Notes under the pieces: generated by a model | What the model was told of the DNA's origin: nothing | The model's input: the letters and a program-made list of their open reading frames with translations, nothing else | Databases searched by the model: none | Shown here: positions 11,825 through 36,093 of the stretch, piece after piece | Layout of the letters: every line of letters begins with the position of its first letter | Numbering within the stretch: position 1 is the first letter of the stretch | DNA from: Nitrosopumilales archaeon | Lineage (GTDB): Archaea > Thermoproteota > Nitrososphaeria > Nitrososphaerales > Nitrososphaeraceae | Assembly (NCBI GenBank): GCA_044507735.1 | Contig: JBIQJB010000023.1 | Location: 1-36,093, forward strand | Direction: 5' to 3' | Length of the DNA stretch: 36,093 nucleotides | Translations under genes and position numbers: made by a program

Positions 11825-11852
11825 GTTAAATACTGACCGCACATTGTGGTGT
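11825..11852 (+). promoter_or_regulatory. Leaderless-type promoter GTTAAATA-N8-ACATTG-N6-ATG
   Basis: Same spacing and ACATTG hexamer as before GTG 16405 (+) and ATG 35693 (-). Confidence 0.6.
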
Positions 11853-12143
11853 ATGCTTCAGAACATCGAAGGGGACGAAAAGGCAAAGGTAACCAAAGTA
11901 GTGGTCGCCGCATTGATACTTGGCACGTCTGTTGCACTGGCAGGTCCAATCATAGGATGGCTCTCAGGAGTCGATATAAGCAACCCATCCGTCTGCACAT
12001 CGGGACAGACCATTACAAGCGGCAGTAGTGGATGTCTTCCACCACAGTTGGCAAACCTGATGAGAAACGGCATGACCATAATGATCCTCGTAGGCGCCTT
12101 CATAGCAGCTGTTGGGATCATAATCGGATTTGTCAAGTTGTAA
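11853..12143 (+). CDS. Small two-TM protein, candidate VirB2/TrbC-like conjugative pilin (96 aa)
   Basis: Two Gly-rich hydrophobic helices separated by a Cys-bracketed loop; size and context near VirB4; shared promoter motif. Confidence 0.5.
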   Translation: MLQNIEGDEKAKVTKVVVAALILGTSVALAGPIIGWLSGVDISNPSVCTSGQTITSGSSGCLPPQLANLMRNGMTIMILVGAFIAAVGIIIGFVKL

Positions 12144-12273
12144 ATCCTGCCCGTTTTCTTTTCTGTTATTTCCTGGTGATTGATGGGGGCGACGGAATGG
12201 CTGCCTTGAGAGATCGTGCAGACACGAATGCGATTACCGATGTGGTCAAAGTGGTGCAAAGTCACGAGAGAGG

Positions 12274-12810
12274 ATGAGGGCGGTGAACAAGACGGCAAGG
12301 AAAAGGTCAATAGCCATGATGGCTGCTGGAATGGGAGCGGCAGTTACTGCCATATTCGCCTGTGTGTATGTGTGGAGACTTCAAGACATCACTTCATCAT
12401 CCATTCTTGCAGTCTCATTTACCACGTTCTGGCTCTTTGCCTGGCAGCTTGACGCGCGCCTTACCGCAAGGAACTGGCAGCACGTGATGAAAGGAGACGA
12501 GTCCAACATCTTTGTGAACTTTATGGCCGGGCACGTCACACGCGGCAGGACATGGCTTACGCTGGCGTTGCACGCGGCTTTTATCGTCACAGTGGCATGT
12601 GCCATGGCGGCCGCAGTGTCTGTTGCGATTTCCTCCTTGGATATGATTGATAGTGTAGCGGGAGAAGCCAGTCATGCCCAAACCCTGATGATTTTCTTTG
12701 TACTTGCGTCTGCATTCCTGGCCTTCTTTGGCACAGGCCACCTTGACGCGTACCTTTGCAACAAAGATTTTCTGAGTTCTGCGCCTTCAAAGGAGAAGAG
12801 ACACGGATGA
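12274..12810 (+). CDS. Four-TM membrane protein (DUF5658-like motif)
   Basis: Four hydrophobic segments; LDARLT...DESNIF resembles the D..T...E.NP motif of that family. Confidence 0.6.
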   Translation: MRAVNKTARKRSIAMMAAGMGAAVTAIFACVYVWRLQDITSSSILAVSFTTFWLFAWQLDARLTARNWQHVMKGDESNIFVNFMAGHVTRGRTWLTLALHAAFIVTVACAMAAAVSVAISSLDMIDSVAGEASHAQTLMIFFVLASAFLAFFGTGHLDAYLCNKDFLSSAPSKEKRHG

Positions 12811-12811
12811 G

Positions 12812-13176
12812 ATGGAGGTGGAAAGAGGTAGAGGTGAAGCGGTCGACGCCATGAAACTGCATACAAAATATTACTTGCGGTTTTTGTGGCTGTGCCGACT
12901 CACAGGGCTTGCGGACAGCCAGCTGCGCATGTTCATAGCTTCGATCGAGTCGGGAGAACAAAAGCGACTAGCGACTATATCTTCAAACTACTGTGTGTGA
13001 AACGCGCAGGGAAGGACATTCTCTACAGCATCGAAGTGTATTTTGTAGTGATGGACAACAACAACCACAATGATGGCAGTAGAAAGTCTAGGCCCCATCT
13101 CGTGCTAAAGTCTCCGCTGCTGGTTGACGCCCCTCGACGGAACAGCAAGAGGCATATCCGTGCAGCAGGCAGCTGA
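12812..13176 (+). pseudogene. Hypothetical gene split by a 2-bp slip in a (TG)4 tract
   Basis: ORF 12812-13000 ends ...SNYCV*; removing one TG at 12992-12999 joins it to KRAGKDILYSIEVYF... ending 13176 (~120 aa). Confidence 0.4.
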
Positions 13177-13350
13177 CGCCCTGGCACAACACACCCATGG
13201 AAGGAGAACCTGCCCAATTACGCTAATCCAAAAGTGATGTATTTGCAAAAATCATTGAAATCTGGCCACCGATCACATGCCGCAGGAAAACACCTTGGTA
13301 ACGGCATGGCTTGGCGAAGCTAGCATTGCTGTTGCCGCTGTCATAACGTT

Positions 13351-14694
13351 TCATATTTCATGGTCCACTGCTATCACAACAAACCTCGTGGCAATGCTCA
13401 CCTTTTTCAAGAACTTCTCCACCTCGCTCTTTCTATCTGTCGCGAGCTGCTTCACGTCGTCAAGATCGACGGTGCCGGAAGCAAGTCCGAGGAATTCTAC
13501 CTGCTTGGGGCTGAGGCAGAACACCTGACTGCCGTTGCTCCCGTCGTCGCCGTCGCTGCGTATCACATTTACTGGCCCGAACTCTTCTATCCTGCACACG
13601 ACACCGGTGGACTTGTCGACGATCTGCTGCTTTCCGCAATGGAGGCAGTGTATGATGGACTTGTTGCTGTCAGGCAATATTACGCCGCTGGCACCCTTCT
13701 TGTCGCTTGTGGCAGCAACCGGCAGATGAGATCCAATGTCGCCGCCATGATCATCACCATCGCCGCTCCCGGCACCGTACTCCAGCATTGCACCGCCACC
13801 CGCAGCCGGCCCCGTTGACGTCCTCTGGACAGCAGTTGATGACGATGGTGATGGCGGCGGTGATCGCGGGGTTGCCATCATGGCCGCAACGGTCTTTTTC
13901 TGCTTGAGCGCCGCCGCCATCGCCATAACCTGGTCCGGCGTAGGAAAGACAAAGCGCTCCTGTGATCTTAGCATGTTGAGATAGCCCAGTATGTTTTCGA
14001 TCAGCGTCTTCATCCTCCGCTGTATCTCTTCCATTCGCTCCCGCTCGCCCCTGCCTGAAGGTATGTCGCTGCTGCACGTTTCGTACACGGCTATGAAAAA
14101 GTGCGGTGGAACCTCCACGTGTGGAAATACAGCTGCCTTTTCCATGAGATATTTCTGCAGCATCGCCCTCAGCTCCGCATCGTACGCGCCAAGGATCAGC
14201 TGCACCGCGCGCTTCATCACCTCGCCGATAGGCATAGCTGCGTACGGGTCGCTTACCCCTTGCTTTGCAAGGAACGCTATCGCGTTTGCCATATTCAGGG
14301 GGTTGAGAGGCGACGTGACATTGCGCTTGACGTGCTCTGATACTACCTGTGCAACGTCGTCTGCGACGAGTTCATCGCTCACCACGACTTCAGCCAGTCC
14401 TGCAGCCCTGCATGCGTCGACCCGCGCATGGCCGTCTACGATGTAGAACTTGTCTCCCACTCTGGCCACTGCAATGCCGTCGATGGGCCGGTCAGCTTCT
14501 ATCGTGGCTGCTATGTTGTCAATGAATTGAGTCGTGTGCAGCCTTACCCTCACCGGGCTTGGCAAGAGTGCCGATATTGGTAGAGTATGTGTACGCGCTG
14601 GCATGCTATTACTATTGCTCCTGCTGCCGTTTAGCTTCTCTTCATTTTCCTTTTTGCCTGACGTCGATGATGATTTCATACCTGCGACGCTCAC
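13351..14694 (-). CDS. ParB/Srx N-terminal domain protein with low-complexity linker and C-terminal CxxC domain
   Basis: LPISALLPSP...IAVARVGDKFYIVDGHARVDAC; C-terminal CLHCGK; GTGA overlap with the upstream gene. Confidence 0.85.
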   Translation of the reverse strand: MSVAGMKSSSTSGKKENEEKLNGSRSNSNSMPARTHTLPISALLPSPVRVRLHTTQFIDNIAATIEADRPIDGIAVARVGDKFYIVDGHARVDACRAAGLAEVVVSDELVADDVAQVVSEHVKRNVTSPLNPLNMANAIAFLAKQGVSDPYAAMPIGEVMKRAVQLILGAYDAELRAMLQKYLMEKAAVFPHVEVPPHFFIAVYETCSSDIPSGRGERERMEEIQRRMKTLIENILGYLNMLRSQERFVFPTPDQVMAMAAALKQKKTVAAMMATPRSPPPSPSSSTAVQRTSTGPAAGGGAMLEYGAGSGDGDDHGGDIGSHLPVAATSDKKGASGVILPDSNKSIIHCLHCGKQQIVDKSTGVVCRIEEFGPVNVIRSDGDDGSNGSQVFCLSPKQVEFLGLASGTVDLDDVKQLATDRKSEVEKFLKKVSIATRFVVIAVDHEI

Positions 14695-15545
14695 CTCCCA
14701 CCAGTGTTTTTCTCCATCTTGCCAAGCGCGATCCCAGTCCGCGCCGCATGCGCGGACAGCACCGACTGCCGCTGCCCTGGCAATGCACCATCGCTGCTAC
14801 TCAAGAACCGCCTGGCAATGATTCCATGCATCCACATTGCAGAGGCTGTGTACCGCATCCCGTCTCCAGGCTGCATCGGCAGCCCTTCGACCCTGGTAGA
14901 CACCATGATGCGCAGATGGTAGAGGTCCCGCATGCGTGTGTGTCTTGTGCCAAATGCCGACGACACTGCACTTGCTGCCTCGTATTCGTCCACCGTGCTG
15001 CAATAGCAGCAGATCGAATACAACGCCGCTTCGGCTGCACTTATGACCCTGGGTTTTGTCATACACAGCTGCCTGTAGACCTTGCAGAACACCTGCCATG
15101 CACACTCGGCATCAACAGGAGACATGGCGAGCCTGTCGCAAGCGTTTGAAAATGCACTGAGGTATCTGCTTGCGCTGGCATGATCTGAGCCATTCTTGGC
15201 GATCTTGAGGCTTCTGCTGTCAGAGAGCGAAAGCATCTCTTGCATCTTGGCATTCGTAGTGGCCGCTTCTGCGCTGCCAAGCTGGTGGTTCACGTACAGG
15301 TTGACCTTTGACTTTGTTGTTTGTTGCCGCTGCGTTTGGATGGCCACCGCAGCGTTCTCTTCAGCCGCATCAGGCGAAAGCACCGCGCCACACTTGACAC
15401 ACACATGCTCCAAGCCGTCGGGTGTCAATCGCGGATCGTGCGTGCATTCATCATAATGGCTGGCGTGACTGGCCGGAAAAGTGGCAGGAGTGGAGATAGA
15501 ATTGTTGTTGTTGTTGTTCTTGACGTTTGACTTTGAAATACTCAC
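14691..15545 (-). CDS. Divergent TFB/TFIIB-like protein (Zn ribbon + cyclin-like repeat)
   Basis: CTH...DGLEHVCVKCGAVL ribbon; FSNACDRLAMSPVDAECAWQVF...AEAALYSIC resembles TFB cyclin repeat 1. Confidence 0.7.
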   Translation of the reverse strand: MSISKSNVKNNNNNNSISTPATFPASHASHYDECTHDPRLTPDGLEHVCVKCGAVLSPDAAEENAAVAIQTQRQQTTKSKVNLYVNHQLGSAEAATTNAKMQEMLSLSDSRSLKIAKNGSDHASASRYLSAFSNACDRLAMSPVDAECAWQVFCKVYRQLCMTKPRVISAAEAALYSICCYCSTVDEYEAASAVSSAFGTRHTRMRDLYHLRIMVSTRVEGLPMQPGDGMRYTASAMWMHGIIARRFLSSSDGALPGQRQSVLSAHAARTGIALGKMEKNTGGR

Positions 15546-15561
15546 ATAATGCTAGATACGA

Positions 15562-15599
15562 GGTGTAGCACATAAAATTGCCTATGGTGTAGTACATAA
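15562..15599. repeat. 14-bp direct repeat GGTGTAG(C/T)ACATAA, 24-bp period
   Basis: 15562-15575 and 15586-15599, 13/14 identical, directly upstream of the TFB-like gene. Confidence 0.75.
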
Positions 15600-15725
15600 G
15601 CATATCGCTGTATCATGCGAGTAGCTGCATTTCTCTTTTGATTCATGCACTAGAGTATTTTGTAATAAACGCGTATGTGAGAATCAACTTTTTATTCTGT
15701 CTGTCGTCAAGGCAAGAGTTGCTGC

Positions 15726-15965: not shown

Positions 15966-16340
15966 TCAGACGACCGTCTTGGTTGGTGTTGCGTCCGCAA
16001 ACATCGCAGCGATGTGTTTCTTCTCAGTTGTTCGACTGGAACGCGTGGCAAAGAACCTGATTGCCGACATCAAGTATTCCTCCGCTGTCATCACACGCGG
16101 CCTGTAGAATGCCATTATCAATGACACACCTGCCACCGCAACAGCGGAGTATGGGTTGACAGTCGCCAGCCCGTATGCAAGAAGCAATCCTGTGAATAGC
16201 AGGGCGAGTTGCTTCATAGTCAGCACTACGAATCCTATCGAAAATATCGGCTCAGAGAAAACTCCCATGCTGCTGAACCATATCACGTCGATGTGTTGGA
16301 TCGGCGCAGATTGTTGTGATGTTGTTATTGTGGCTGTCAT
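15966..16340 (-). CDS. PrgI/VirB3-like small membrane protein (124 aa)
   Basis: EPIFSIGFVVLTMKQLALL, two TMs, YRPRVMTAEEYLMSAIRFF; adjacent to VirB4. Start reassigned to ATG 16340. Confidence 0.7.
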   Translation of the reverse strand: MTATITTSQQSAPIQHIDVIWFSSMGVFSEPIFSIGFVVLTMKQLALLFTGLLLAYGLATVNPYSAVAVAGVSLIMAFYRPRVMTAEEYLMSAIRFFATRSSRTTEKKHIAAMFADATPTKTVV

Positions 16341-16376
16341 GTTGTTATACCTTCTCGCATAGGAAGTGCAGGCCGC

Positions 16377-16404
16377 CTTAAAAGACGCCGGCACATTGGG
16401 GTGC
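16377..16404 (+). promoter_or_regulatory. Promoter CTTAAAAG-N8-ACATTG-N6-GTG of the VirB4-pilin operon
   Basis: Motif and spacing shared with other element genes. Confidence 0.6.
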
Positions 16405-18561
16405 GTGGGCAAAACTAGCGGGAATGAGGACAAGAGCAACAAGCTGGGTGGCAGGATATTTTCATCATTCCGGATGGGGAGGAAGCTAGGACAGGTCCGG
16501 CGCCGGCAGGATGAGCCGAGTGCGAATTTGAATGCCGCTGGAAAGCAAGGATCAGTGCAGCGCAACGGCCCGGCGCAGGCACAAAAGCGCATGCAAAAAC
16601 AATACACATATGCGTTTGAAATCCGGCCTACCAACTTTTTCTCGCTGCCAGATGAAAAACAGCGTGTCGTGCTGACGCGCTTTTTGCAGCTGATAAACGC
16701 TGCTACAAGCGACGGCGCTCCTGTGCTGCTTACTGTGGCAAGGGCACGGGTAGACTTTGAAGGCACAGGCTACAGCACTGTGCGCACGTTCGTGTCCACC
16801 ACCGGCAGGGACGGAGACGGCAGGAGCGCCGCACTTTACCACTATCTCTCGGCTCTTGGATTCAACCCGGAGCCAGTGGGCAATGACGGCGGTAGCAGTA
16901 ATAATGAATTGCCTGTCATAGACGTCATATCGGAGAGCCCGCGCAGCGTGTCTGTGCGCTACGGCTATCATGGCGCTGGCGATAGTCGCGACTACAACTA
17001 CGGCCATATCAGGTGCAGGACCTTTGTGCTGATTGCTCCGAGGTACTCGATGCAGCCAGCATGGGTACACTCTCTCATGCAGCACTGCGACCTTGTGCGA
17101 GTCAGGGTAGAAAAGATAAGCCCGGAGAGGTCCATAGCGATGGCGCAAAAGTACAGGTCGACGGTGGAGGTGGCGCTGCGCAGGAACCCAAACCTGACAC
17201 ACAAGTTCCAGCGCGCTTCAGCATTGTATGAGGGACTCCAGTCACAGTCGACGGCGCTCTTCAACGTCGGCCTCTCGTGCACAATATTTGCAGCAGACGG
17301 GAAGGAGCTCGACACAAGGAGCAGGGAATTTGTAAAGGCCATGAACGCGTCGGAAATGCGGTTTGCCGACGTTCCGTTTGTCCAGCGCGAGCTGGCAGCG
17401 GGCACCTGGAGGAAGAAAGACGCGATAGCTGACCTTGGCACTCTGGCAGTGGTATACCCATTCGTGTCTGCAGACCTGCTGGAAGTCGGGAAGGGGATAT
17501 TGCTTGGCCAGAACGTGGAGACAGGGTCTCCTGTCGTCTACGACTATATGATGCGAAGCAACTACAACGTGGTGCTGCTCGCCTCGTCGGGCGCAGGCAA
17601 GTCGGTCACCGCCAAGACGATACTAAAGCGCGTGACAGAAAAGCATCCCGGTGCATATGTGTACGTAGTTGACCCGCAGGGCGAATATGAAAGGATAGCC
17701 GACTATTTCGGCCTTTCAGTGGTGAAACTCACAGACCCTGTCACGGGAAAGGTACGCCGGATGGGGCTTGACCCCTACGCGCTGTTTGAGCCGCTTGACG
17801 TTCCGCAGGTCATTGCAGACATTGCCGGAGCGGACGATATTGCAAGAAAAGAGATAACGGCAAGATCGACCTCTGCCAGGTCCATATTCGACCTTTACTC
17901 GCAAGTGAGCGGCGATACAAAGAAGCACCTGATGCAGCTGGTGGAGGGACCCTTCTCAGAGCTGTTCAGGGAAGAGTCTGGAGCCGACAATAGTGCCGCC
18001 ACCGCTGCAGGCATGCTCTCCCGGACTATTATTTCACTGCAAGGCGCTTACGAAAACAAGGAGAGGCAGGCGATACTGCTCACGCTGGCGCTTGCAAAGG
18101 CATGGAAGTACCTCATATCCGCACCGGCACACGTGCCAAAGGTCCTCGTGGTGGACGAGGGATGGCTTGTGTTCAAGATACCCTCTACCGCCCGCTTTAT
18201 TGAGATGATTGCGCGCACCGGACGCAAGCTGAACGTGCTATTCCTGTTCATCAGCCAGAACCCCGAAGACGTGATAAAGCAGGAGACGGGAAGGGCGATT
18301 CTGGAGAACGCTGACACCAAGATATTGCTGAGAAACACCGAGATAGCCGCTCACATGGTGGCCGAGACCCTGTGGCTTTCGCAGCGTGAGAAAGAGATGC
18401 TTCCGGTGCTGCAGAACGGCGAGGCGCTCATGTTTGCTGGCGAGCACAGGCTGCGGGTAAAGATAACGCCGAGGTCGCAAGAAGAGCTCCGGGTATTTTC
18501 GACGAATCCTGTGGCCTCTGTGAACGATGGAAATGCGACAAGTATGGTGGATAAGAGATGA
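16405..18561 (+). CDS. VirB4-like type IV secretion/conjugation ATPase (~718 aa)
   Basis: Walker A ASSGAGKS, VVDPQGEY, Walker B VLVVDEGW, RTGRKLN...ISQNPED, ILENADTKILL; N-terminal IRPTNFFSLPDEKQ domain. Confidence 0.88.
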   Translation: MGKTSGNEDKSNKLGGRIFSSFRMGRKLGQVRRRQDEPSANLNAAGKQGSVQRNGPAQAQKRMQKQYTYAFEIRPTNFFSLPDEKQRVVLTRFLQLINAATSDGAPVLLTVARARVDFEGTGYSTVRTFVSTTGRDGDGRSAALYHYLSALGFNPEPVGNDGGSSNNELPVIDVISESPRSVSVRYGYHGAGDSRDYNYGHIRCRTFVLIAPRYSMQPAWVHSLMQHCDLVRVRVEKISPERSIAMAQKYRSTVEVALRRNPNLTHKFQRASALYEGLQSQSTALFNVGLSCTIFAADGKELDTRSREFVKAMNASEMRFADVPFVQRELAAGTWRKKDAIADLGTLAVVYPFVSADLLEVGKGILLGQNVETGSPVVYDYMMRSNYNVVLLASSGAGKSVTAKTILKRVTEKHPGAYVYVVDPQGEYERIADYFGLSVVKLTDPVTGKVRRMGLDPYALFEPLDVPQVIADIAGADDIARKEITARSTSARSIFDLYSQVSGDTKKHLMQLVEGPFSELFREESGADNSAATAAGMLSRTIISLQGAYENKERQAILLTLALAKAWKYLISAPAHVPKVLVVDEGWLVFKIPSTARFIEMIARTGRKLNVLFLFISQNPEDVIKQETGRAILENADTKILLRNTEIAAHMVAETLWLSQREKEMLPVLQNGEALMFAGEHRLRVKITPRSQEELRVFSTNPVASVNDGNATSMVDKR

Positions 18562-18983
18562 CTCTGCAGTCTGAACGGCGAGCCGTAAGCCCTGCCATAG
18601 CCACAATCGCACTCGTTGCAGTAGCTGCGGCTGCAGCTGCCATCGCGGGCTCTGACATGATGAGAAAGACCGCGTTGTCGCAGCCTGCAATGCCTGTTGA
18701 AATTTCCGAGATATTCATGATAAAGATATCCGATACGAAGGCTCATTTTCACGCAGTCTACAAGATGCAGCCCGGCTGGACGACAGCGGCATCATCGGTG
18801 AATGCATCGTTCAAGGACGATTCAGGTGCCACGGTATCGTTCAACCTGCCGACTGGCTCTACCACATTCGACTCGGTGATCAAAGCACAAGTCAGCATTG
18901 GCCAGAGGTACAACTTTATTATCATAGCTGCTGGGAGCGATGGAAATAGCGCTACAGTAACAATGCCTGTCTTTACGAGATGA
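18558..18983 (+). CDS. Archaeal type IV pilin (class III signal peptide)
   Basis: ERRA-VSPAIATIALVAVA; ATGA overlap with the VirB4 stop. Confidence 0.85.
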   Translation: MTLQSERRAVSPAIATIALVAVAAAAAAIAGSDMMRKTALSQPAMPVEISEIFMIKISDTKAHFHAVYKMQPGWTTAASSVNASFKDDSGATVSFNLPTGSTTFDSVIKAQVSIGQRYNFIIIAAGSDGNSATVTMPVFTR

Positions 18984-19373
18984 TCCAGACTTGCTTGTGC
19001 AGGAGCAGTTAGTGCAGGCAGGGAGTCATGTGCACATCGAAATCCCAAATGGAGTCGGTCGTCTGCGAGATTTGCGAAGCGGTACAGTAGAAATCTCAAG
19101 GGAATGAGTTATTCGATCTACCCTGTTCTTTTTAGCACCATGATCAATTCCTACGGGCATGCATAATCTAAGGAATAGCATACACGTGCTATGCGGGTCT
19201 TTGTGGTCTATTTGCTGACGATCATCAATGAGCAATACTGGCTCTCTGATTTTTTCGCGCTCAAATATACGCAGATTCCAAATCTTTTTCCCATGTACAT
19301 AAGAAGGGTTGGAGTGTATGTAATTTTCCGGTATACTTGTTAAATATGTACAGTGCCGCTGTCCTGCAACAAG

Positions 19374-19826: not shown

Positions 19827-20046
19827 TCTCTATGGCTTCACACTCGGCTCGCTTCTTCTCTTCTTCTAAATATGCATACGACAGCAACAAGTTTATGACA
19901 GAAAATATTTCGTAAAAGCCAAAAGATTTGCCGAGAACCTGATCAAAAATCTGGTGTTGAATCACGAAATTCCATGTCTTGGTGGATTTGATCGGCTTGA
20001 ATGAAATTATGAAAGCAGTTAGCCAAACTGTATAGAACTTGTGCCA

Positions 20047-20361: not shown

Positions 20362-20572
20362 CGGGCTATGGTATTATGGATTCTGATGGAAGGTTCGCTC
20401 ATCACAATACTCTAGTGCCTCTCCGCCCTTGCAGATGTACAAGCGCACTATGTTGGCTAGGAGGTTGTCTGTGCAAATGAAACCCTTCTTCCATCTTGGA
20501 GCTCTATTCAGGAAATCTGAAATGCAATTGTCCCAAATGTCATTCCGGCAGAACACCTGTCTATCATAAATC

Positions 20573-27903: not shown

Positions 27904-27908
27904 CAAGC

Positions 27909-30227
27909 ATGACGGTGAGTCCAAGCGGACGAGCATCTGCTGCTCAGGAAACACCGCGATGGCTGTGGCCAATTCAAATTGCAGTTGGGATCGGGAGCAT
28001 CCTGCTATCAATTTTCATAGCCCTTTCGCCCCAGATCGGATCTTATGCATTCTTGATATTGGCAGGAATTGGTCTGATGATTCTAGGTGGAGAAAGGATT
28101 GCAGCAGGGTTATCTGCCCGGCATGTCCGGCGATCCTCGCGCGCTATCAATATTGGGATTGGGGCGGGCATCATCGTCTGGATTGGGTCTGGTTTCTTTT
28201 TCCCGGAAATTGCTCTCAAGTACCTTGTACTATTTCTTGGATTTGGCCTGCTGGCAAACGGATCTGTGAGAATATTTGGAGACCTTGGGAAGAGAAGAAG
28301 TAGAGAATCGTCAGATTTGCTTCCTCTCGGCGCTGGCATATTGAGCGTAGGTATCGCGGTGCTGATACTCGTTTACCCTCCAGTCGGTCTTGCATTGCTC
28401 TTGATAATGACCGTCATAGCGCTAGCGGCAAGCGGCGTACAGGTCGTTATGGCAGGGATCAGAGGCCGTCACCGCGCTCCTCCAGCCGCTGACCGCTCCC
28501 TGCTGCACTACGATTCCGATGATCAAAGCCTGCTAGCTCATGATGGAATATGGAAAAGGGGTTCATGGTTTAGCGACGGCGAGGGGAGATACCTGCTTTT
28601 CAGAGGAGTAAATTTCGGCTCCCGGACCAAGTTGCCCCCTTATCTGCCAATAGCTCCTCTCTCAATCACGAAACTATCACAGCTTGATTTGAGCAAAGAG
28701 ATCCAGTCAGTAAAGAACGAGTTGGATCTTATGAAAGATCTCGGGTTCAACGTTGTCCGCCTCTTGATTTCGTGGAAGGCGTTAGAGCCCCGCCCAAACC
28801 CGGATCTGACAGAACTTTTGCCTGAGGGCAGGGAATATCTGACTTTCGTAAGAAAAATTATTGACGAGCTATACTCGAGAAATCTCTACGTTATCCTGGA
28901 CTTTCATCAAGATCTTGCTCACGAAGTATACGGAGGAGATGGCTTTCCCGATTGGGCGTTGGCAATTGACCAAGAACACGGCAGTCCAGAGCCCTCCGAC
29001 CTGAAAGACAAGAAGTGGCAAGTAAAGTACGTTGTCAACAAGTCTCTAAAGCACACACTCCGATCATTTTGGCAAAATGACCTGACCAACATGGCCAGCG
29101 GCCTCGAAAACTTTCCAGTGAGAACGCATCTGGAAAAAACAATTGGCCAGGCAACAAAATTTTTGCTTCCTGACGGTGCCACGAGTCACCCGGCAATTCT
29201 GGGAATCGAACCCTTCAATGAGCCACATCCGGCAGGCTTGCCAAAAGAGCAGTTTGAACAAAAGATGCTTTTCAGCTACTACCAAAATGTGAATTCCGAG
29301 CTCATGCACATCGCTCCCGATCTATTCGTACTCCTAGAGCCGAGAGTAGACTGGACGGTACCCAAACAGGGCGACGATGAAGGGGGAGGTGTGCTAGGAT
29401 CGACTCCCTTTTCTGCTAAAAGTGCCTTCCACATGGGGCTGGTAAGAGACGTGATGCTGGAAGGAAGGATGGATTCCAAAAAGATACAAACTTACCTGCC
29501 AAAGGACTTGCACTCTACATTTGGACGAAACGGCGTCCTGTCTTTTCACTTCTATGACATGATGTCGGTGGCCAGCTCACTATTCGGAATCCCTGAAAGC
29601 ATGTACACTTACAGGCGAGAGTGGCCCGCAATCTTTGACCAGCTAGTCCGAACTGCCGCAGAGCTTAGGCTTATTCCCTTTCTAACAGAGTTTGGAGGAT
29701 TTCAAGGAGCAGAGCAAGTGCGAGATTACCTGAATCTCCAGTTTGAGCAAATAGAAACCCACCTTCTCAATTCAACATGCTGGAACTATGACCTTTACAG
29801 CACCAAAGAGGGTAAGGACAACTGGAACCTCGAGGATTATTCGCTGCTTGGACCCGATAGAACTCCGCGGAACGTGGACGTCGTGGCCCGCCCATATCCG
29901 ATGCGCAGTTCCGCCGAACCGGCGTTGGTATTCTTTGATATCGCATCCAAATATGCGACGATAATTCTGAGAGGCAAAGTGGTAGATGCAGCCACGGTCA
30001 TATACGTCCCCTTCAAGATCCACTACAAACCCGAGTTTTCGGTATGGGCAACGGGAGACGGGCTAGAGTGGGACAGTGAGAACCAGCTTTTGTATTGGCA
30101 TCCTTCAAGGGAAAGGGATGATAATCAAATAATCATTAGCAAGAGCAGGCAGTTAGTCGTTGATGCGCTTCCAGAATCTGCAAGGAGAGTCCGGGGATAT
30201 TTCACCCTGATGCGCACATTCGCCTAG
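27909..30227 (+). CDS. Fusion: DUF308/HdeD membrane domain + GH5 endoglycoceramidase-like glycoside hydrolase
   Basis: Six N-terminal TMs; DGEGRYLLFRGVN, GFNVVRLLISWKALEP, LDFHQD...GGDGFPDW, catalytic NEP and LTEFG, VARPYP plus C-terminal beta domain. Confidence 0.88.
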   Translation: MTVSPSGRASAAQETPRWLWPIQIAVGIGSILLSIFIALSPQIGSYAFLILAGIGLMILGGERIAAGLSARHVRRSSRAINIGIGAGIIVWIGSGFFFPEIALKYLVLFLGFGLLANGSVRIFGDLGKRRSRESSDLLPLGAGILSVGIAVLILVYPPVGLALLLIMTVIALAASGVQVVMAGIRGRHRAPPAADRSLLHYDSDDQSLLAHDGIWKRGSWFSDGEGRYLLFRGVNFGSRTKLPPYLPIAPLSITKLSQLDLSKEIQSVKNELDLMKDLGFNVVRLLISWKALEPRPNPDLTELLPEGREYLTFVRKIIDELYSRNLYVILDFHQDLAHEVYGGDGFPDWALAIDQEHGSPEPSDLKDKKWQVKYVVNKSLKHTLRSFWQNDLTNMASGLENFPVRTHLEKTIGQATKFLLPDGATSHPAILGIEPFNEPHPAGLPKEQFEQKMLFSYYQNVNSELMHIAPDLFVLLEPRVDWTVPKQGDDEGGGVLGSTPFSAKSAFHMGLVRDVMLEGRMDSKKIQTYLPKDLHSTFGRNGVLSFHFYDMMSVASSLFGIPESMYTYRREWPAIFDQLVRTAAELRLIPFLTEFGGFQGAEQVRDYLNLQFEQIETHLLNSTCWNYDLYSTKEGKDNWNLEDYSLLGPDRTPRNVDVVARPYPMRSSAEPALVFFDIASKYATIILRGKVVDAATVIYVPFKIHYKPEFSVWATGDGLEWDSENQLLYWHPSRERDDNQIIISKSRQLVVDALPESARRVRGYFTLMRTFA

Positions 30228-30425
30228 CGCCCAAAATAGTTGAGTCATGATTTTCTAGCGCCACATCCTCTGAGCTATTGCAGCACACGCGGTACACATA
30301 TTGTAAATACCGAAGGTTTCAGACTGACGCTGTTTAGACTATGCCCTTCAGATCCCGATTATGCTACAATACAGCACAATCCGTAAATCGCAATGACATT
30401 CAAGTCATCTTCGTGATATGTTCTC

Positions 30426-31031
30426 ATGCGACAAGAGTCCATTAAGGCTCCAAAATATGTGCGCACGATAGACGTGATACTTGGTGCAATAAGCCTAATA
30501 CTTGCCGGGGTTGTTTTTGCCTTGCCAGCCTTCGCTGCGGCGCTACTGGTGCTTGTTATTTCGCTTTCATTGATATTTGCAGGGGTTGAGGGGGTCATCG
30601 TAGGTGCTACGGGAAGAGGTCTGTCTGGTTCTCAGAGGGCGCTGCGCCTGATACTTGGGATAATTGCAGTTGGCATTGCGATAGCCGTCATTGCATTTCC
30701 CGGAGCAGCGGTGCTGAGCTCGGTAGTTCTGCTCTCCCTTGGACTGCTCGCCCTGGGTGCTTCTGCCATTGGAAAGGGAGTGACAGAGAAATTCATGCCT
30801 GGGTGGGCTAGAGCCATGTATGTAATAGTGGGCGGCCTGGTCGTTGGACTTTCAATTCCTGTTATTGTCTATCCAGTATTTGGACTATTGACGCTCTACT
30901 ACATGATAACGACCGTGCTGATAATAAACGGGATAGGCTACATAATTGCAGGAATAACCGGGGCAGTATACGTGCCCATAGGGACACGCATTGTCAGAGA
31001 CGGCAGCAAGTGGGAATCAGACGCCGCCTGA
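30426..31031 (+). CDS. HdeD/DUF308 family membrane protein
   Basis: Three repeats of (R)...G...I.....P hydrophobic hairpins. Confidence 0.85.
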   Translation: MRQESIKAPKYVRTIDVILGAISLILAGVVFALPAFAAALLVLVISLSLIFAGVEGVIVGATGRGLSGSQRALRLILGIIAVGIAIAVIAFPGAAVLSSVVLLSLGLLALGASAIGKGVTEKFMPGWARAMYVIVGGLVVGLSIPVIVYPVFGLLTLYYMITTVLIINGIGYIIAGITGAVYVPIGTRIVRDGSKWESDAA

Positions 31032-31175
31032 GGTGAGAAGTACGGAAGAAGGCTTCTCCTAGGGCTGGCCAAGAAATACACCGCAGCAGTACTCGGCCCA
31101 CCCAAAAAAAGGGAATCGGCATTGGTGGCCTTTTGCTCGCACCCTTGCTTAAAAGCCCACATCTCCTTTTGTGTC

Positions 31176-31649
31176 ATGAACTGCGAGCGTGAACACAGGC
31201 GACGGGCAGTATCCCCTGCAATCGCAACAATAGCGCTCATAGGGCTTGCGATTGTGACCGCGGGCGCCGTAGGCACTTTTGTCATGGACCAGTCGTCAAC
31301 TCTGAAGCAGGAGCTCAGCGCGGACATTCTAGAAGCACACCTTGTCCAGCTGAGAAAGAATGCGAACGACTGGAACGCAGGAATCTCGTTCAAGAACACC
31401 GGGACTGTCGATATTACAAATGTAAGAATAGATATTCGCCGAGATGACGGCACCGTCTGGACGATATCCGGCGCACCGACCGGCGGCAGCGCATCGCCGG
31501 GTGAAACAAACCGGATTGATAATACTGCAAGCACAGCCCAGATCTCGCCTGGACGAAGCTACACCTTTTCCATCGCAATAACTGCCAGCGTTGCGGGTGA
31601 CACGTACACAAGGACATACATCCGCACGGTGATCGCAGAAGGGCTGTAG
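31176..31649 (+). CDS. Archaeal type IV pilin (157 aa)
   Basis: RRRA-VSPAIATIALIGL; KNTGTVDITNV; CTTAAAAG 20 nt before ATG 31176. Confidence 0.88.
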   Translation: MNCEREHRRRAVSPAIATIALIGLAIVTAGAVGTFVMDQSSTLKQELSADILEAHLVQLRKNANDWNAGISFKNTGTVDITNVRIDIRRDDGTVWTISGAPTGGSASPGETNRIDNTASTAQISPGRSYTFSIAITASVAGDTYTRTYIRTVIAEGL

Positions 31650-31681
31650 TAGCATGCGCACTCTTCCTCACATTTTCTCTT

Positions 31682-32524
31682 CTACACACTTGGCCCTGTT
31701 GTGTATGTCCCCTTCCTGCTTATGTTGAACCGCGCAGTTCGTGGATCATCAGGCAGGGCAATGATGTTTGCAAGCTCAATGTCTGACAACACACAAAAAT
31801 GACTGGCAAAAAACATCGGTTTCTTTCCCACCTCTATCCTGTACGTAGAGTCCCTCTCCATAACAGATATGGAAAACCCGTCGCCGTCAAAGGAGAGGAG
31901 CTTGATCAGCGATTTTGCAATGTCGACGCTTTCGGCACCGATAGCAATGCTGCAATGAAAGTGCCTCAGCCTCTGCTTTTCCTTTGCCATGTCTGCCCTG
32001 GTTTGCCGTGCGACTGATGTGACCTTCCTTGCCTGCCTGCTACCGTTGCCGCCAGCACCGCTGCCAATAAACATCCCCAGTATTTCGCCAGCAAGCGACG
32101 GCTTTGCGTACAGCTGCTTTTCCACATACTGTGCTATGGAATATGATTCGTTGTGGTACCTCGCCGTGACCGCGATGAAGCATGGCCTGACCATCCTTTC
32201 CATCGTAGAATAAAGAAGCAGCGGGCGCTGTTGCAGCTCGTGAAAGATCGGGAGCGCATAATGCCTCTTCATTTTAAGGTACGAGATCGTAGGTGCAGAG
32301 AATACCTTTGGATGTGTCCGTTCGGCGACAGCATTTCGAAGTATACCAGGTACAATGTCTGCGTCTGTAGACAGGGGCATGTGGAGGAAGAACCGGGTCA
32401 TGTCGTCCTTGCCTCGGGCAATAAACTGGGAAAACTCTCGTACCTTCATGACAAGCTCGTGCATGTCATTGTACTTTTCATCGGCAGGCTCAAAGAACGG
32501 CCTGACCTCGTACCAATTTGACAT
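31682..32524 (-). CDS. Hypothetical protein resembling the non-ATPase N-terminal region of VirD4/coupling-protein-like ATPases
   Basis: LKMKRHYALPI and VLSDIELANIIALP motifs; no Walker A; CTTAAAAG 21 nt before ATG 32524. Confidence 0.5.
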   Translation of the reverse strand: MSNWYEVRPFFEPADEKYNDMHELVMKVREFSQFIARGKDDMTRFFLHMPLSTDADIVPGILRNAVAERTHPKVFSAPTISYLKMKRHYALPIFHELQQRPLLLYSTMERMVRPCFIAVTARYHNESYSIAQYVEKQLYAKPSLAGEILGMFIGSGAGGNGSRQARKVTSVARQTRADMAKEKQRLRHFHCSIAIGAESVDIAKSLIKLLSFDGDGFSISVMERDSTYRIEVGKKPMFFASHFCVLSDIELANIIALPDDPRTARFNISRKGTYTTGPSV

Positions 32525-32775
32525 GGTCAAAAAAAGCCAGGCGAACTTTTAAGGCAAGTTTTTTTCTGACAGAGAGGATGTGAAAAAGGTGTTGGTCGAG
32601 AAGAAGGAGCTATTGACCATCGTCCCTTTCATCAACATATCCGAATTCTGCTCCCTTCTCGGGGTTGCTGGGTAGGGGTATTTGCACAAAGATTTCTCTA
32701 CTCTCAATAGATGCTCAAATCTGGTTACGGATGGAAATAAAAACAGTCAATTTCTTCTATGCAAGAGTGTTTTTA

Positions 32776-32813
32776 TATGCATAATGCACTGGATATCATA
32801 TGCGTTATGCATA
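32776..32813. promoter_or_regulatory. 13-bp inverted repeat, candidate AbiEi autoregulatory operator
   Basis: TATGCATAATGCA-N12-TGCGTTATGCATA (12/13), overlapping the TTTTATAT box (32771-32778) and ATG 32807. Confidence 0.7.
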
Positions 32814-34012
32814 CGGAATCCATAAGCATTAGAGATAGGATAACTCGTAAGCTGGAGCTACTAACTGAACATAGGATAGTCTCAGCTGAAGAAGATGTCC
32901 GAATTTCTAATATTGGAACTATAGATTTTGTATTTAAGGACGATCATGGAAATCGCTATTTTGCTGAGGTCAAACGGGGACGAATCACTGCTTTTGATGT
33001 AGGGCGTATTGTGAGGTCTGCAGAGCGCACTTACGACATGTTTCCCTCATCAAAATTCTTCGTCTTTGTAGACAAAATCGATCCAACTAGCAAAAAAGTG
33101 CTAGACAAGATGAAAATAAATGTCGTCGTGTTGAAACGTCTGCCACAGTTATCTAACGAGAGGAGATCGTCCTCAACAGTACAAGTCAAGAGTGGCAAAC
33201 TGCAACTTTCTCCAAGAGAACAGGAAGCATACTTTCTTCTCCAACGAAGGGGTATCAAAGTTGCTACCCCCGAAACTTTAGCAGAGGAATTGAAAATTTC
33301 TGCAGTATACGCAAGGAATCTACTTGCGAGTCTTGCAAGAAGTGGCGTATTATCAAGATTCGGTAGAGGAAAGTATGTGGTACTATCTGCTGACATCGTA
33401 TATCATCACAGAGGATATACAACAGACCCGCTTTCGATACTGGATCAGTTGTTCGGAGACGAACCATATTATGCTGCTTACGCCACCGCACTATACATTC
33501 ATGGGCTTTCGCACCAAATTCCCTTTCAAACTCAGGTAGCAACTATTAGACAAAAAAGGTCGATGCGAGTGGGAAACTCTCTCATAAAGTTTGTAAAGAT
33601 TAGTCCATTGGAATTGTTCGGATACGAGGAACGACGATATCTAGACTCATTCGTAAAAGTATCAGATATTGAAAAGACCATCATAGACTGCATACAACGT
33701 CCGGATTTGTGCGGTGGCATTAGCGAAGTAACGCGAAGCATGGCAGAAGCACTAGGTAGGATAGACGTCGACAAATTCCTCTCCTATATTTCCAAGATTG
33801 CAAATGAGGCAGCAATTCAAAGGCTGGGCTTTATCCTTGCTAAATTAAGATTTGAGAAATATGAAGTAGATTCGAGACTTCTTAAAGAACTGAAAAATAG
33901 GAAATTCCGTCATCGTCATCTTTTGGATTTTACACAGCCAAAGAAAGGGAAGTTTTCAAAAGAGTGGAAGATAATAGAAAATGTCAATTGCATGAGTTGG
34001 AAGTATGATTAA
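32807..34012 (+). CDS. AbiEi-family type IV antitoxin with extra N-terminal PD-(D/E)XK nuclease-like domain
   Basis: IDFVFKDDHGNRYFAEVKRG; wHTH LARSGVLSRFGRGKY; YATALYIHGLSHQIP; VSDIEKTIIDC...PDLCGG. Confidence 0.88.
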   Translation: MHTESISIRDRITRKLELLTEHRIVSAEEDVRISNIGTIDFVFKDDHGNRYFAEVKRGRITAFDVGRIVRSAERTYDMFPSSKFFVFVDKIDPTSKKVLDKMKINVVVLKRLPQLSNERRSSSTVQVKSGKLQLSPREQEAYFLLQRRGIKVATPETLAEELKISAVYARNLLASLARSGVLSRFGRGKYVVLSADIVYHHRGYTTDPLSILDQLFGDEPYYAAYATALYIHGLSHQIPFQTQVATIRQKRSMRVGNSLIKFVKISPLELFGYEERRYLDSFVKVSDIEKTIIDCIQRPDLCGGISEVTRSMAEALGRIDVDKFLSYISKIANEAAIQRLGFILAKLRFEKYEVDSRLLKELKNRKFRHRHLLDFTQPKKGKFSKEWKIIENVNCMSWKYD

Positions 34013-34999
34013 GATTACACCCACCTTATTGCGGGATTGGGCAGATAATATTGGTATTGGTAGTCTAATTCTAGCGGAACATGACTATAGAATCAGTCAC
34101 CTCTTAGATTTGATATATTCCGACCCTTATCTCAAAGAGGTTCTGGTTCTGAAAGGGGGAACCGCAATAAACAAGCTACATCTAGGAAGGACCCGCCGAT
34201 TGTCAGTAGATCTCGATTTTAACCAAATTGGAACGAAACAAGAGGTCTTGAAGAATGCAAAATTAGTCCGTGAGAAGCTCGTCGAATTATCTAAGAAGCA
34301 GGATCCCGACTATAAAATTGCACACGACCCATCATATAACCAGACAACAGTAAGGTTAAAGTATTCTGCCTTGGCGGGAACTGCTCTTCAACCCATAAAG
34401 CTAGAAATCTCTCATGTGGAACGATTTCCAATTCTTCCAACTGAAAATAAACAACTTGCATTGCATGATTTGCGCGAGTCTGTTGTCATACGAACTTACA
34501 AAATAGAAGAACTACTGGCCACGAAGCTGCGGGCACTACATGATCGCATGAAGGGGAGGGATCTATACGACCTAAATTTGGCATACGATCCAATAACAGA
34601 TCAGGATTCTCTTAGAAAGGTGTTTCTATATTATTTTTATCGTGATAGGAAGGTTTTCAATCCTAAAAGATACTTCGAAAAATATCTAACAATCAGTATG
34701 ACGATGATGTTACGAACTTTATTCGGCCAGACATTAAATTCGATCTTAAAGATGCCAAGGTCAAAGTAATTCAAAAATATGGTTTTCTAAAGAATCTTGA
34801 CGCGGCAGATGAAAAGTTCCTCAGTTTGGCTAGGCATTTGCTTGGAGATGCAATAAAGAAGGAGATAGGGCCTGAAATTGCTGCCATACAGAAACCCTTC
34901 CGGATATTATTTGATGGAAGCAAAAAGATTGACGAAAGAATTTTGGACATAGAGACCGAGGAAATTAAGCCATACAAAAAGCCCGCAAGACGACGGTAA
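34005..34999 (+). pseudogene. AbiEii/AbiGii nucleotidyltransferase toxin, frameshifted at A5 (34678-34682)
   Basis: VLKGGTAINK...RLSVDLDF, IKLEIS, ATKLRAL...KGRDLYDL; one extra A joins the ORF to ISNNQYDDDV...KPARRR* (331 aa). Confidence 0.85.
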
Positions 35000-35201
35000 G
35001 GAAAAACCCCCTAGAGTCTGTCCCCGTCATGCCTCGATTTTTATTTCCTGCAGCATTGTTCACTGTTATCTGCCTGAGTGGGACGCTGCTAGTAGTTATT
35101 GAGCGGCTTGAACCATTATTCCAAATCGTTCCTTACGTGGAATCTGAACGGATTTGGCAGAGTTGCCACTGAAAAAAATGTGGCACTGGTAACAATCTGT
35201 T

Positions 35202-35693
35202 CTACCTCGCACTCACTGTCACACTGAACGTATCAGTCGCAGTCCCGCCGTCCGAGCCGGTGTATGTAGCAGTGCCAACAAGTACTGTCCCTGTAACGTT
35301 ATCTCCCATGTTTACAGCGGAGATACTTGCACTCCCTGACTTGGTCTGACCTGGTGCTATGTCGTTGATAGTGATAGTCGCGCCGGTTACACTCGGGATG
35401 CTAATAGACGCCGAATTGATGTGTATGCCCCCGTTGTTCTTTACAGTGGTAACAAAGGTACCTGCGCCTGCGCTGTCCCTGATGAGCTCTATGTTTTCAA
35501 TGGCAGCCCTTATCCCTCCCTGCGCACTGCTTGAGGTATTGAACGCATAGGAACCTGTCACGGCGGCTATGACGACAGCCACTGCTATCAGTGCTATGGT
35601 CGTTATTCCACCTGCTATCGCTCTCTTGTTATTTGTAGCCGCTGCTTTTCGTCCTTTGCGATTGGGTTGTGTGGATTTGGTGTTGTTATCCAT
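35202..35693 (-). CDS. Archaeal type IV pilin (163 aa), candidate major pilin
   Basis: NKRA-IAGGITTIALIAVAVVIAAV; TVKNNG; IAPGQT; promoter motif before ATG 35693. Confidence 0.85.
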   Translation of the reverse strand: MDNNTKSTQPNRKGRKAAATNNKRAIAGGITTIALIAVAVVIAAVTGSYAFNTSSSAQGGIRAAIENIELIRDSAGAGTFVTTVKNNGGIHINSASISIPSVTGATITINDIAPGQTKSGSASISAVNMGDNVTGTVLVGTATYTGSDGGTATDTFSVTVSAR

Positions 35694-35741
35694 GCAGGGC
35701 AATGTTGCATGTGCTTTTAAGCGACTGTTTCATTTCTTCCT
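35694..35741. promoter_or_regulatory. 48-bp bidirectional promoter centred on CTTTTAAG (35714-35721)
   Basis: Exactly 20 nt to ATG 35693 (-) and 20 nt to GTG 35742 (+). Confidence 0.6.
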
Positions 35742-36093
35742 GTGCCTGTATCATTCCATCCCCCTTCTGATGTTTCTTCTAATCTTGATGTAATAGCAGA
35801 CGACAAAAATGTTGGCCTGCGAGAGCTTGCCCAGTATGCCATAGGAGAAGCGCAGATAGCAATCTATGGAGACTACAGGCGTGGCATAGGCAGGTATGTT
35901 GTGAAAGAGCCAGAGCTCACAGAACAGGGAAAAATAGCCTACCGCATGCTGCTCGACGAGCTCCAGTCCTCGCCTTCAGTCACCAGCGATGCCATGACCA
36001 TCGACATGTTGGAAAAGGAGGTCGGTGCAGCTGCGGCCACTCTGGGCATAACCGGGGCGGTGAACAGCGAGCGCGACGCGATACTGTACAAAT
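35742..36093 (+). CDS. N-terminus of an archaeal type IV pilus/ArlI-like assembly ATPase (partial)
   Basis: Open frame from GTG 35742 to the window end: ...YAIGEAQIAIY...GRYVVKEPELTEQG...ERDAILYK, matching the Y.V.EP.L N-terminal signature; ATPase motifs lie outside the window. Confidence 0.65.
   Translation, partial: MPVSFHPPSDVSSNLDVIADDKNVGLRELAQYAIGEAQIAIYGDYRRGIGRYVVKEPELTEQGKIAYRMLLDELQSSPSVTSDAMTIDMLEKEVGAAAATLGITGAVNSERDAILYK

Follow-up and report, generated by a model that had tools for sequence, protein, structure and literature searches.

A probable, incomplete copy of a thaumarchaeal integrative and conjugative element with conjugation-type and type IV pilus genes on a Nitrososphaera contig

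The stretch of DNA analysed here (the window) is the whole of contig C12, 36,093 bp long, from a 2.33-Mb genome of the genus Nitrososphaera assembled in 55 contigs (G000, the source genome; G numbers denote genomes and C numbers contigs). Its part from 11.8 to 36.1 kb encodes a TFIIB-ParB pair, a type IV secretion system (T4SS)-type core, an archaeal type IV pilus (T4P) set and an AbiE pair, and is very likely an incomplete, cargo-split copy of an integrative and conjugative element (ICE) of the thaumarchaeal kind, one of two paralogous copies in the genome. The second, sister copy lies on contig C19. We compare both with three related loci (L020, L021 and L022, of which L021 is G137:C134) and with genomes that correspond to published elements, i.e. 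G112 (NitEve-E6 range), G113 (NitGar-E3 range), G158 (NitVie-E3 range), and G032 (NCAV gene coordinates). Homology to the other copies begins at position 11816, the left edge of similarity, and on the right the contig ends inside a FlaI-like ATPase gene.

At the centre of this region lies the gene of a VirB4-type conjugation ATPase (16366-18561, forward strand), whose start is ambiguous (16366, 16474, or 16591) and whose Walker A motif is encoded from nucleotide (nt) 17581. The protein matches the TraG P-loop domain (5.7e-13), AAA_10, and DUF87 in Pfam, and in NCBIfam two conjugal VirB4 families (4.1e-31 and 6.6e-31) and TraC (1e-24). Importer families score far lower in the same database (CedD 9.4e-9, HerA 1.5e-7, and CedB 9.1e-6), and the best sequence match in the PDB is VirB4 (4ag5, 1.8e-18), with HerA-type helicases near 1e-3. 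The VirB4-like ATPase of the initial annotation is therefore upheld, and an identity as a Ced/HerA-type importer, which that annotation had named as a refuting outcome, is rejected on the profile scores. Membership of the Ced/Ted systems, i.e. a CedB/TedB HerA-like ATPase at a conserved chromosomal locus, was also rejected; the scores speak against it and the locus is not conserved in relatives. The window VirB4 is 86% identical to its C19 paralogue, 57% to the G112 homologue, 45% and 42% to two copies in G032 (at the coordinates of NCAV_1036 and NCAV_0457), and 34% to those of G113 and G158.

Divergent from VirB4 is a gene for a small VirB3/PrgI-like membrane protein of 124 amino acids (aa; 15966-16340, reverse strand), and its position beside VirB4 is conserved across relatives. 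PrgI (PF12666) is its top Pfam match (E = 2.7e-4; 21.8 bits against a 27-bit cut-off) and is the best match in all five proteins tested, i.e. the window protein and four homologues (18.8-23.9 bits), every one of which falls below the 27-bit gathering cut-off, so that none qualifies as a PF12666 member. The divergent orientation and the PrgI likeness reported for this gene thus stand, with the likeness below threshold.

At the left edge of the element, a candidate VirB2/TrbC-like conjugative pilin of 96 aa (11853-12143, forward) has two hydrophobic helices (residues 11-40 and 69-96), and its AF2 model is a hairpin of helices H3-37 and H64-95. In the ESM Atlas the nearest named clusters are T4SS_pilin/TrbC (score 0.84), which we use as a lead only. 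A profile built from six members of the family, searched against 1.84 billion proteins, gave 11 matches at E<=1e-3; nine of these lie outside the close family, and six of the nine carry T4SS_pilin and/or TrbC/VirB2 (four above the curated cut-offs) and three carry neither. None of three family members tested directly against Pfam matched PF04956, PF18895, or any other model at E<=1. Structure searches with so small a model (a hairpin of 96 aa) were uninformative: in the PDB, Foldseek had nothing at E<=0.001, with fragments of RB69 polymerase in the top rows, and a wide VIA-align search returned generic helical hairpins (Z<=7.1), with no conjugative pilin among the 50 rows listed. The VirB2-like candidate of the initial annotation accordingly keeps its hairpin and a transitive link to the family, without a direct Pfam match; it probably works like VirB2, to which it is probably distantly related. 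Next to it is the gene of a 178-aa membrane protein (12274-12810, forward) of the arCOG10611 family, "uncharacterized" in the published ICE tables, with no Pfam match and no named ESM Atlas neighbour. Its homologues adjoin the VirB2-like gene in C19, L020, L021, G112, and a further relative, G156, and the G112 homologue lies at the coordinates of NTE.03377 (arCOG10611, cog.032845).

Three pilin genes make up the filament part of the pilus set, namely pilin 1 (18558-18983, forward; N-terminus ..SERRA/VSPAIATIALV..), pilin 2 (31176-31649, forward; ..HRRRA/VSPAIATIALI..), and pilin 3 (35202-35702, reverse; ..NNKRA/IAGGITTIALI..). In each of them a basic stretch is followed by [R/K]A and then by a hydrophobic helix, a pattern that we take to be the class III signal peptide cleavage motif of prepilins. 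The initial annotation had VirB4 translationally coupled to a class III pilin, and the sequence shows the overlap: the stop codon of VirB4 (TGA) overlaps the start codon of pilin 1 (ATG) as ATGA within AGATGA, an overlap present in four of the five close copies (the window, L020, L021, and L022; not C19). Identity of pilin 1 to its C19, L020, L021, and L022 counterparts is 76-78%, and the protein has no profile match in Pfam or NCBIfam. The two further pilins that had been proposed are also borne out by their N-terminal pattern and by matches to UpsA. Pilin 2 matches UpsA (9.7e-8), Pilin_N (3.3e-4), and arch_flag_Nterm (7.6e-5; 22.1 bits, above the 20-bit cut-off), and is preceded by an A/T-rich, TATA-like box that is kept in relatives. 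For pilin 3 the UpsA match is weak (3.7e-4), and the protein is 73% identical to its counterparts in C19 and L021 and 78% to that of L022.

Divergent from pilin 3, as first described, a gene for a FlaI/TadA-type pilus assembly ATPase runs forward from 35742 to the contig end (36093), which cuts it after 117 aa. This FlaI-like fragment is 73% identical to residues 1-120 of its 474-aa paralogue on C19, which matches T2SSE (8.1e-35) and FlaI (6.9e-77) and is followed by an UpsF/TadC-like platform gene (UpsF 1.6e-52, T2SSF 1.7e-19). A scan of the window finds no T2SSE-family domain elsewhere in it, and across G000 clear T2SSE-family pilus ATPase matches occur only in the two element copies (a match on C2 is weak).

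A gene set of this kind is already in print, and the window is a new, fragmentary example. Ten thaumarchaeal ICEs have been described, with VirB4, VirD4, VirB6, VirB3, TadC, FlaI, a prepilin peptidase, pilins, and TFIIB-ParB given as typical genes (Krupovic 2019, PMC6563490), so the novelty of the combination had been overrated: the FlaI, TadC, prepilin peptidase, and pilin genes were listed for such elements in 2019. The module of the window is syntenic with that of NitEve-E6, tabulated there as a 141-kb ICE with an integrase and att repeats in tRNA-Asp; the G112 homologues of the TFIIB-like, ParB-like, 178-aa, VirB2-like, VirB3-like, and VirB4 genes fall at its NTE.03373-NTE.03380 coordinates. 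The NitEve-E6 range in G112 contains no FlaI-like ATPase. The FlaI-like genes of G113 and G158 lie within the published ranges of NitGar-E3 and NitVie-E3, 8-10 kb from VirB4, and NitNCS1-E3 is tabulated as TadC-pilin...FlaI-VirB4-hypothetical-pilin-pilin (supplement of PMC6563490).

Gene order ties the two modules together in the related copies as well. The arrangement TFIIB-ParB-(293 aa)-178 aa-VirB2-like-VirB3-like-VirB4 recurs in C19, L020, L021, G112, and G156. In L020, L021, and L022, VirB4, pilin 1, pilin 2, and a gene for a 282-aa protein are contiguous. As far as the contigs extend, pilin 3 is next (L021 and L022), and in L021 two secreted proteins, the ATPase, and TadC come after it. 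In the G156 relative the ATPase lies ~7 kb from VirB4, and a tyrosine integrase gene adjoins the module. The window and L020 carry the block running from TFIIB-ParB through the 178-aa and VirB2-like genes in the opposite orientation to C19, L021, G112, and G156 (window 11816-15607 against C19 1-2885 and L021 2164-6661), and the 293-aa gene between the ParB-like and 178-aa genes is missing from the window copy.

The distribution of the VirB4 gene is patchy. In a first draw none of 24 genomes of the genus had it, and 3 of 16 from other families of the order did. A fuller search (E<=1e-10) found it in 8 of the 71 further genomes searched within the genus and in none of 166 from the family's 17 other genera. 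These tallies, and that of the GH5 gene described below, include G009 and G022, two genomes flagged as unpublished; neither gives a match to VirB4 or GH5, and their sequences are not used here. On this distribution we reject the possibility, raised in the initial annotation, that the genes are a syntenic core shared by all relatives.

Copies of the element also appear to move between genomes. The sister copy on C19 and the L021 locus, which belongs to the genome of another species (G137), are 97% identical in nucleotide sequence over 2,361 and 6,993 nt (91% over a further 3,463 nt), whereas a 15-kb chromosomal probe from C3 is 82-88% identical to G137 in three syntenic blocks of ~2.6-3.0 kb (~8.3 kb in total, from the single region sampled). 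We read this difference as a signal of transfer. The two copies within G000 are further apart: between C19 and the window, amino-acid identity is 86% for VirB4 and 65-95% for the other genes. Most proteins have kept 90-100% identity between C19 and L021, with no difference at all in pilin 3, the two secreted proteins, and the ATPase (100%). By contrast, divergence peaks in three proteins, namely the VirB2-like protein (73% identity), pilin 1 (78%), and pilin 2 (73%), which marks the filament subunits as the variable part of the element: these predicted subunits are hypervariable between near-identical copies.

Other components lie elsewhere in the genome. The "coupling-protein-like module" of the initial annotation could not be retained, since the window has no TrwB, TraG-D, or VirD4 domain and VirB4 is its only open reading frame (ORF) of at least 100 aa with a Walker A motif. 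Two VirD4-like genes (DUF87 and TrwB_AAD_bind, the latter located by scanning the ORFs of C21) are present on C21 (3324-5681) and C1 (1-990); a search of G000 for TraG-D_C (PF12696) gave no match. Both genes adjoin a large gene that we call p750, as in G137:C60, where the pair in turn adjoins the VirB2-like side of the module. The p750 protein is 26% identical to the product of the cog.017288 gene of NCAV2-E2, an element tabulated with cog.015040 directly upstream of VirD4, and with the arCOG10611 family, VirB6, and cog.017288 beside VirB4 (supplement of PMC6563490). The ends of C12 overlap no other contig in a contig-end comparison. The 3' ends of C19 and C48 have 55 identical bases in common; we do not trust this join, because the 907-aa-like gene truncated at the C19 end finds no continuation on C48, which carries insertion sequence (IS) elements and a matrixin-like gene. 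Contig C21 begins with the C-terminal part of a gene like that one.

Between pilin 2 and pilin 3 the element encodes a stand-alone protein of 282 aa (31682-32530, reverse) of the family cog.015040, "hypothetical" in the published tables. All 46 homologues are unnamed and none has a Pfam domain; one of them, NTE_03364 (P0014; 57% identity, the name taken from the protein search itself), is listed in NitEve-E6. The AF2 model is of moderate confidence (pLDDT 67.3, pTM 0.67). With this model the top 10 Foldseek matches are all TrwK/VirB4 of R388 (E 1.4e-3 to 9.6e-3), and VIA-align places it on TrwK residues 27 to ~447 with Z 12.6-13.3 over 219-226 residues at a root-mean-square deviation of 3.5-4.2, the next fold having Z 6.7. 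A profile comparison of the 282-aa family with the N-terminal part of the element's own VirB4 (hhalign) gave a probability of 2.6%, i.e. no profile similarity. By its predicted fold the protein looks like a free-standing VirB4 N-terminal domain. From the gene order in NCAV2-E2 one may guess that it docks the VirD4-like ATPase.

The TFIIB-like protein (284 aa; 14691-15545, reverse) has a C-x-H...C-x2-C ribbon, whose residues are conserved in the alignment of homologues, and a helical domain. Its gene lies directly upstream of that of the ParB-like protein (447 aa; 13351-14694, reverse) on the same strand, with a 4-nt overlap at the ParB start. The TFIIB-like protein is 29% identical to the product of the G112 gene at the NTE.03373 coordinates (annotated TFIIB, arCOG01981), and its G156 homologue matches the Pfam TFIIB Zn ribbon (7.8e-5); the window protein has no direct Pfam match, and PDB searches with it, alone and as a 5-sequence profile, gave nothing relevant. 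The ParB-like protein has weak matches to the ParB N-terminal region (TIGR00180 9.6e-4; Spo0J 1vz0 0.017) and is 34-37% identical to the product of the G112 gene at the NTE.03374 coordinates ("ParB-like nuclease domain"). Further right is an AbiEi-AbiEii toxin-antitoxin/abortive-infection pair (32759-34984, forward; Pfam AbiEi_1, AbiEi_4, and AbiEii). The AbiEii frame is broken near 34680, where the 331-aa G112 homologue aligns over two frames (34005-34682 and 34679-34984); the cause is a genuine frameshift or faulty sequencing. The related elements of G112 and G156 have AbiE pairs too.

The pilus and T4SS region of the window is not one compact operon, as 12.1 kb of unrelated genes (18984-31121) occupy the spacer between pilin 1 and pilin 2. 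The window is homologous to L020, L021, and L022 as far as about 19007 and again from 31143 on, a short way ahead of the A/T-rich box of pilin 2. Since the related loci are contiguous here and homology resumes beyond the block, we interpret the block as an insertion. The cargo comprises DUF7144, a 312-aa protein, SnoaL, a SHOCT membrane protein, DUF1622, a patatin, an MFS transporter, and three DUF308 proteins. The three DUF308 membrane proteins stand in a row at 27244-31031, the middle one (772 aa) being fused to a GH5 glycosidase. The patatin-MFS-DUF308-GH5-DUF308-312aa block is found on a separate contig in G137 (C96) at 81-88% amino-acid identity, and the GH5 gene occurs in 12 of the 71 other genomes of the genus. 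On C19 the same spacer holds a different insertion of 8.2 kb with a trpA/trpB pair and CoA-ligase-like, PIN, and Fic genes. Judged from these two copies, the pilin 1-pilin 2 spacer is a cargo hotspot with different cargo in each. The trpA/trpB genes of C19 (6739-8767; locus L003) are a second pair in the genome besides that on C24 (64% and 78% identity), i.e. an auxiliary metabolic pair on an ICE. On C17 (240217-243859), paralogues of the window DUF7144 protein (29%) and patatin (35%) adjoin a broken cas1 fragment, and this region may be a related accessory island.

To the left of the element, the window carries an array of clustered regularly interspaced short palindromic repeats (CRISPR) at 55-4314, with 65 copies of a 30-nt repeat and 64 spacers, mostly of 36 nt. 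One spacer (151-186) matches the p750-like gene on C21 (2568-2599) at 32 of 36 positions and other versions of p750 more weakly (30 nt at 93% in G156 and 24 nt at 96% in G137). None of the 64 spacers matches the window's own element or C19. The single match to the p750 gene of the element family fits a history of host against mobile element. A bold and rather improbable reading would have the array, 7.5 kb away, belong to the element and be used against rival ICEs of its own family. Another spacer has a 23-nt match on C10, and two more CRISPR repeats are found on C46. No intact cas1 was found in G000, where the fragment noted above (C17:243557-243859) is the only trace.

Next to the array, at 4367-4732, is a TnpB/Cas12f-like fragment (TNB domain, 8.6e-9) that we regard as the remnant of a repeated IS because related DNA occurs on C40, C44, C25, C17, and C3. 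Two secreted proteins, encoded at 5828-7372 and 9468-11621, end in ..VPEFG.., a hydrophobic helix, and basic residues (a membrane anchor); this C-terminus is presumably the PEFG-CTERM sorting signal of Thaumarchaeota. The second of them has NHL/beta-propeller repeats, with a 63% identical paralogue on C17 and a 35% identical homologue at the start of L021, beside the TFIIB gene.

Taken together, these observations support an ICE and, with it, the proposal of the initial annotation of a mobile element that combines T4SS-like genes with a T4P of its own. The interpretation draws on the domain and profile matches (VirB4, the FlaI-like ATPase, the TadC/UpsF-like protein, and pilins 2 and 3), the synteny with published ICEs, the patchy distribution, the signal of transfer, and the linkage of pilus and conjugation genes. 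The integrase of G156, the VirD4-like genes beside p750, the gene families in common with NCAV2-E2, and the spacer match point the same way.

If the element works as its genes suggest, the TFIIB-like factor would redirect the host RNA polymerase to element promoters, and ParB would handle the excised form. The type IV pilus would make contact between cells, as Ups pili do in Sulfolobales and the thin pilus in IncI plasmids. VirB4 and the VirD4-like ATPase would then drive assembly of the VirB2-like filament or pore and move DNA to the recipient. The link from the pilus to DNA transfer, including the capture of recipients, is one that we infer, as the literature does. To our knowledge, archaeal conjugation and its mating filament are still poorly understood, and we know of no thaumarchaeal ICE that has been seen to move.

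Several observations weigh against an intact, mobile ICE. The left border of the element is not defined beyond the start of homology at 11816. The window has no integrase domain, att repeat, or tRNA gene (a tRNA scan and an Rfam search at gathering cut-offs gave no match), the sister contig C19 has no integrase or att site, and the 17-mer att sequence published for NitEve-E6 (PMC6563490) is absent from G000. Integrase-like ORFs occur in G000 on C17 and C43 alone, unlinked to the element, and the VirD4-like genes are outside the window. Within the 55-contig assembly, VirB6 was found neither with PF04610 nor by tblastn with homologues from relatives, and a prepilin peptidase neither with PF01478 nor by tblastn with the G112, G156, and G137 homologues. 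Pfam also misses the VirB6 and prepilin peptidase genes of G112 (PF01478, for example, misses the gene tabulated as prepilin peptidase) and the assembly is fragmented, so that a missing VirB6 or prepilin peptidase is not evidence of absence. The places outside the window at which the initial annotation had directed attention have thus yielded VirD4-like genes (C21 and C1) and a TadC/UpsF-like gene (C19), and neither VirB6 nor a linked integrase in G000. A relaxase was not found, as in all archaeal elements described in the source at hand (PMC6563490). The identity of the TFIIB-like protein comes from 29% identity to an annotated homologue and the Zn-ribbon pattern, with no direct profile match. 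The window copy may be decaying, given the AbiEii frameshift and the missing 293-aa gene, and a bin that mixes two strains could, in principle, explain the two copies. A literature search returned no report of experimental transfer for any thaumarchaeal ICE, and on conjugation or pili of Nitrososphaera ICEs it returned nothing beyond Krupovic 2019, Abby 2018, and Beltran 2023.

The gaps just listed would suit an immobilised or domesticated remnant, in which the T4SS-like and pilus genes serve host aggregation and chromosomal DNA exchange in the manner of Ups with Ced/Ted of Crenarchaeota and have ceased to move the element. Nitrosocaldus ICEs contain VirB2-like, VirB6-like, VirB4, and VirD4 genes along with a 96-spacer CRISPR array, and one of them, NCAV ICE-2, was judged immobilised for want of an integrase (Abby 2018, PMC5797428); Ced and Ted were shown to be domesticated T4SS (Beltran 2023, PMC9905601). 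With window and sister contig both lacking an integrase and att sites, VirB6 and a prepilin peptidase not found in G000, AbiEii broken, the platform protein matching UpsF best, and pilins 2 and 3 matching UpsA, this reading has something to recommend it. Yet the window VirB4 scores near 1e-31 with conjugal families against 9e-6 for CedB, 9.4e-9 for CedD, and 1.5e-7 for HerA, and it is confined to 8 of 71 genomes of the genus. The sister copy has 97% identity to that of G137, against 82-88% for the chromosome, and a spacer matches the element family. The genome also has VirD4-like genes, whereas Ced and Ted are listed with VirB4, VirB6, and VirB2 homologues only (PMC9905601). We therefore consider a domesticated remnant unlikely.

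A further idea goes beyond an ICE with a separate pilus, and has the class III pilins as parts of a single merged machine of T4P filament and T4SS channel, co-evolving and recipient-specific, with the VirB4-N-domain-like protein docking the VirD4-like ATPase. The ATGA overlap, by which pilin 1 would be produced in step with VirB4, the place of the N-domain gene between pilins 2 and 3, and the joint divergence of the VirB2-like protein, pilin 1, and pilin 2 (73-78% against 90-100%) would fit such a machine, which we hold to be speculative and improbable.

Less probable than the domesticated remnant is that an ordinary adhesion or biofilm T4P with no mating role sits as cargo beside a conjugation module, even though the G112 element shows that the T4SS module can exist without a FlaI-like ATPase, 12.1 kb of unrelated genes part pilin 1 from the rest in the window, pilin 2 has a promoter-like box of its own, and archaeal T4P loci are described as modular and often transferred (Makarova 2016), because pilin 1 overlaps the VirB4 stop in four of five close copies, pilus and VirB4 genes are adjacent or within ~10 kb in L021, L022, G156, G113, G158, and the NitNCS1-E3 table, a VirB4-N-domain-like gene separates pilin 2 from pilin 3, no clear pilus ATPase occurs in G000 outside the elements, and the VirB2-like protein, pilin 1, and pilin 2 are together the most divergent between C19 and L021.

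Under the preferred reading as an ICE, the locus is a compact, well-conserved example from soil ammonia oxidisers of genes that travel together, i.e. TFIIB-ParB, VirB2-like, arCOG10611, VirB3-like, VirB4, pilins, VirB4-N-domain-like, FlaI, and TadC. What it adds is a "hypothetical" ICE family that resembles a free VirB4 N-domain, a set of predicted filament subunits that evolve fast, a spacer that takes up cargo, and a CRISPR spacer match; the known picture is sharpened and not changed.

The closest known systems are the thaumarchaeal ICEs themselves (NitEve-E6, NitGar-E3, NitVie-E3, NitNCS1-E3, and NCAV2-E1/E2). In common with them the element has its VirB4 family, TFIIB upstream of ParB, a VirB3-like protein, the arCOG10611 and cog.015040 proteins, an AbiE pair, pilins, FlaI, and TadC, as well as the lack of a relaxase and a gene order that is shuffled between elements, with the VirD4-like and p750 genes here located elsewhere in the genome. 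It differs in that pilin 1 follows VirB4 at once, stop and start overlapping, in its cargo, and in the presence of two paralogous copies per genome. An integrase, att sites, VirB6, and a prepilin peptidase were not found in the G000 assembly, in which the element is cut by a contig end.

The pairing of VirB4/VirB2-like DNA transfer with a T4P of UpsF-like platform and UpsA-like pilins is shared with Ups plus Ced in Sulfolobales and with Ted in Thermoproteales (PMC9905601). Ups and Ced are, however, separate chromosomal loci that import DNA, whereas here the two sets share one element of patchy distribution. The ATPase of the window scores as a conjugative VirB4 and not as CedB, and VirD4-like genes are present in the genome. 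At the level of single proteins, the model of the 282-aa protein superposes on the N-terminal domain of TrwK/VirB4 of R388 (PDB 7o41-7o43, 8rtb, and 8rtd); unlike TrwK, it stands alone, without an ATPase domain.

The bacterial IncI1 plasmid R64 offers a parallel in design. It has a relaxase and pairs a T4SS with a thin type IV pilus of type IVb, whose variable PilV adhesins owe their variation to a shufflon. Like the element described here, it would be a single mobile element that carries a conjugation channel and a separate T4P, thought to hold recipients, with variable pilus subunits. The two have no sequence relationship beyond the ATPase superfamilies, and where R64 varies its pilus through the shufflon, the Nitrososphaera element appears to do so by divergence or exchange of whole pilin genes.

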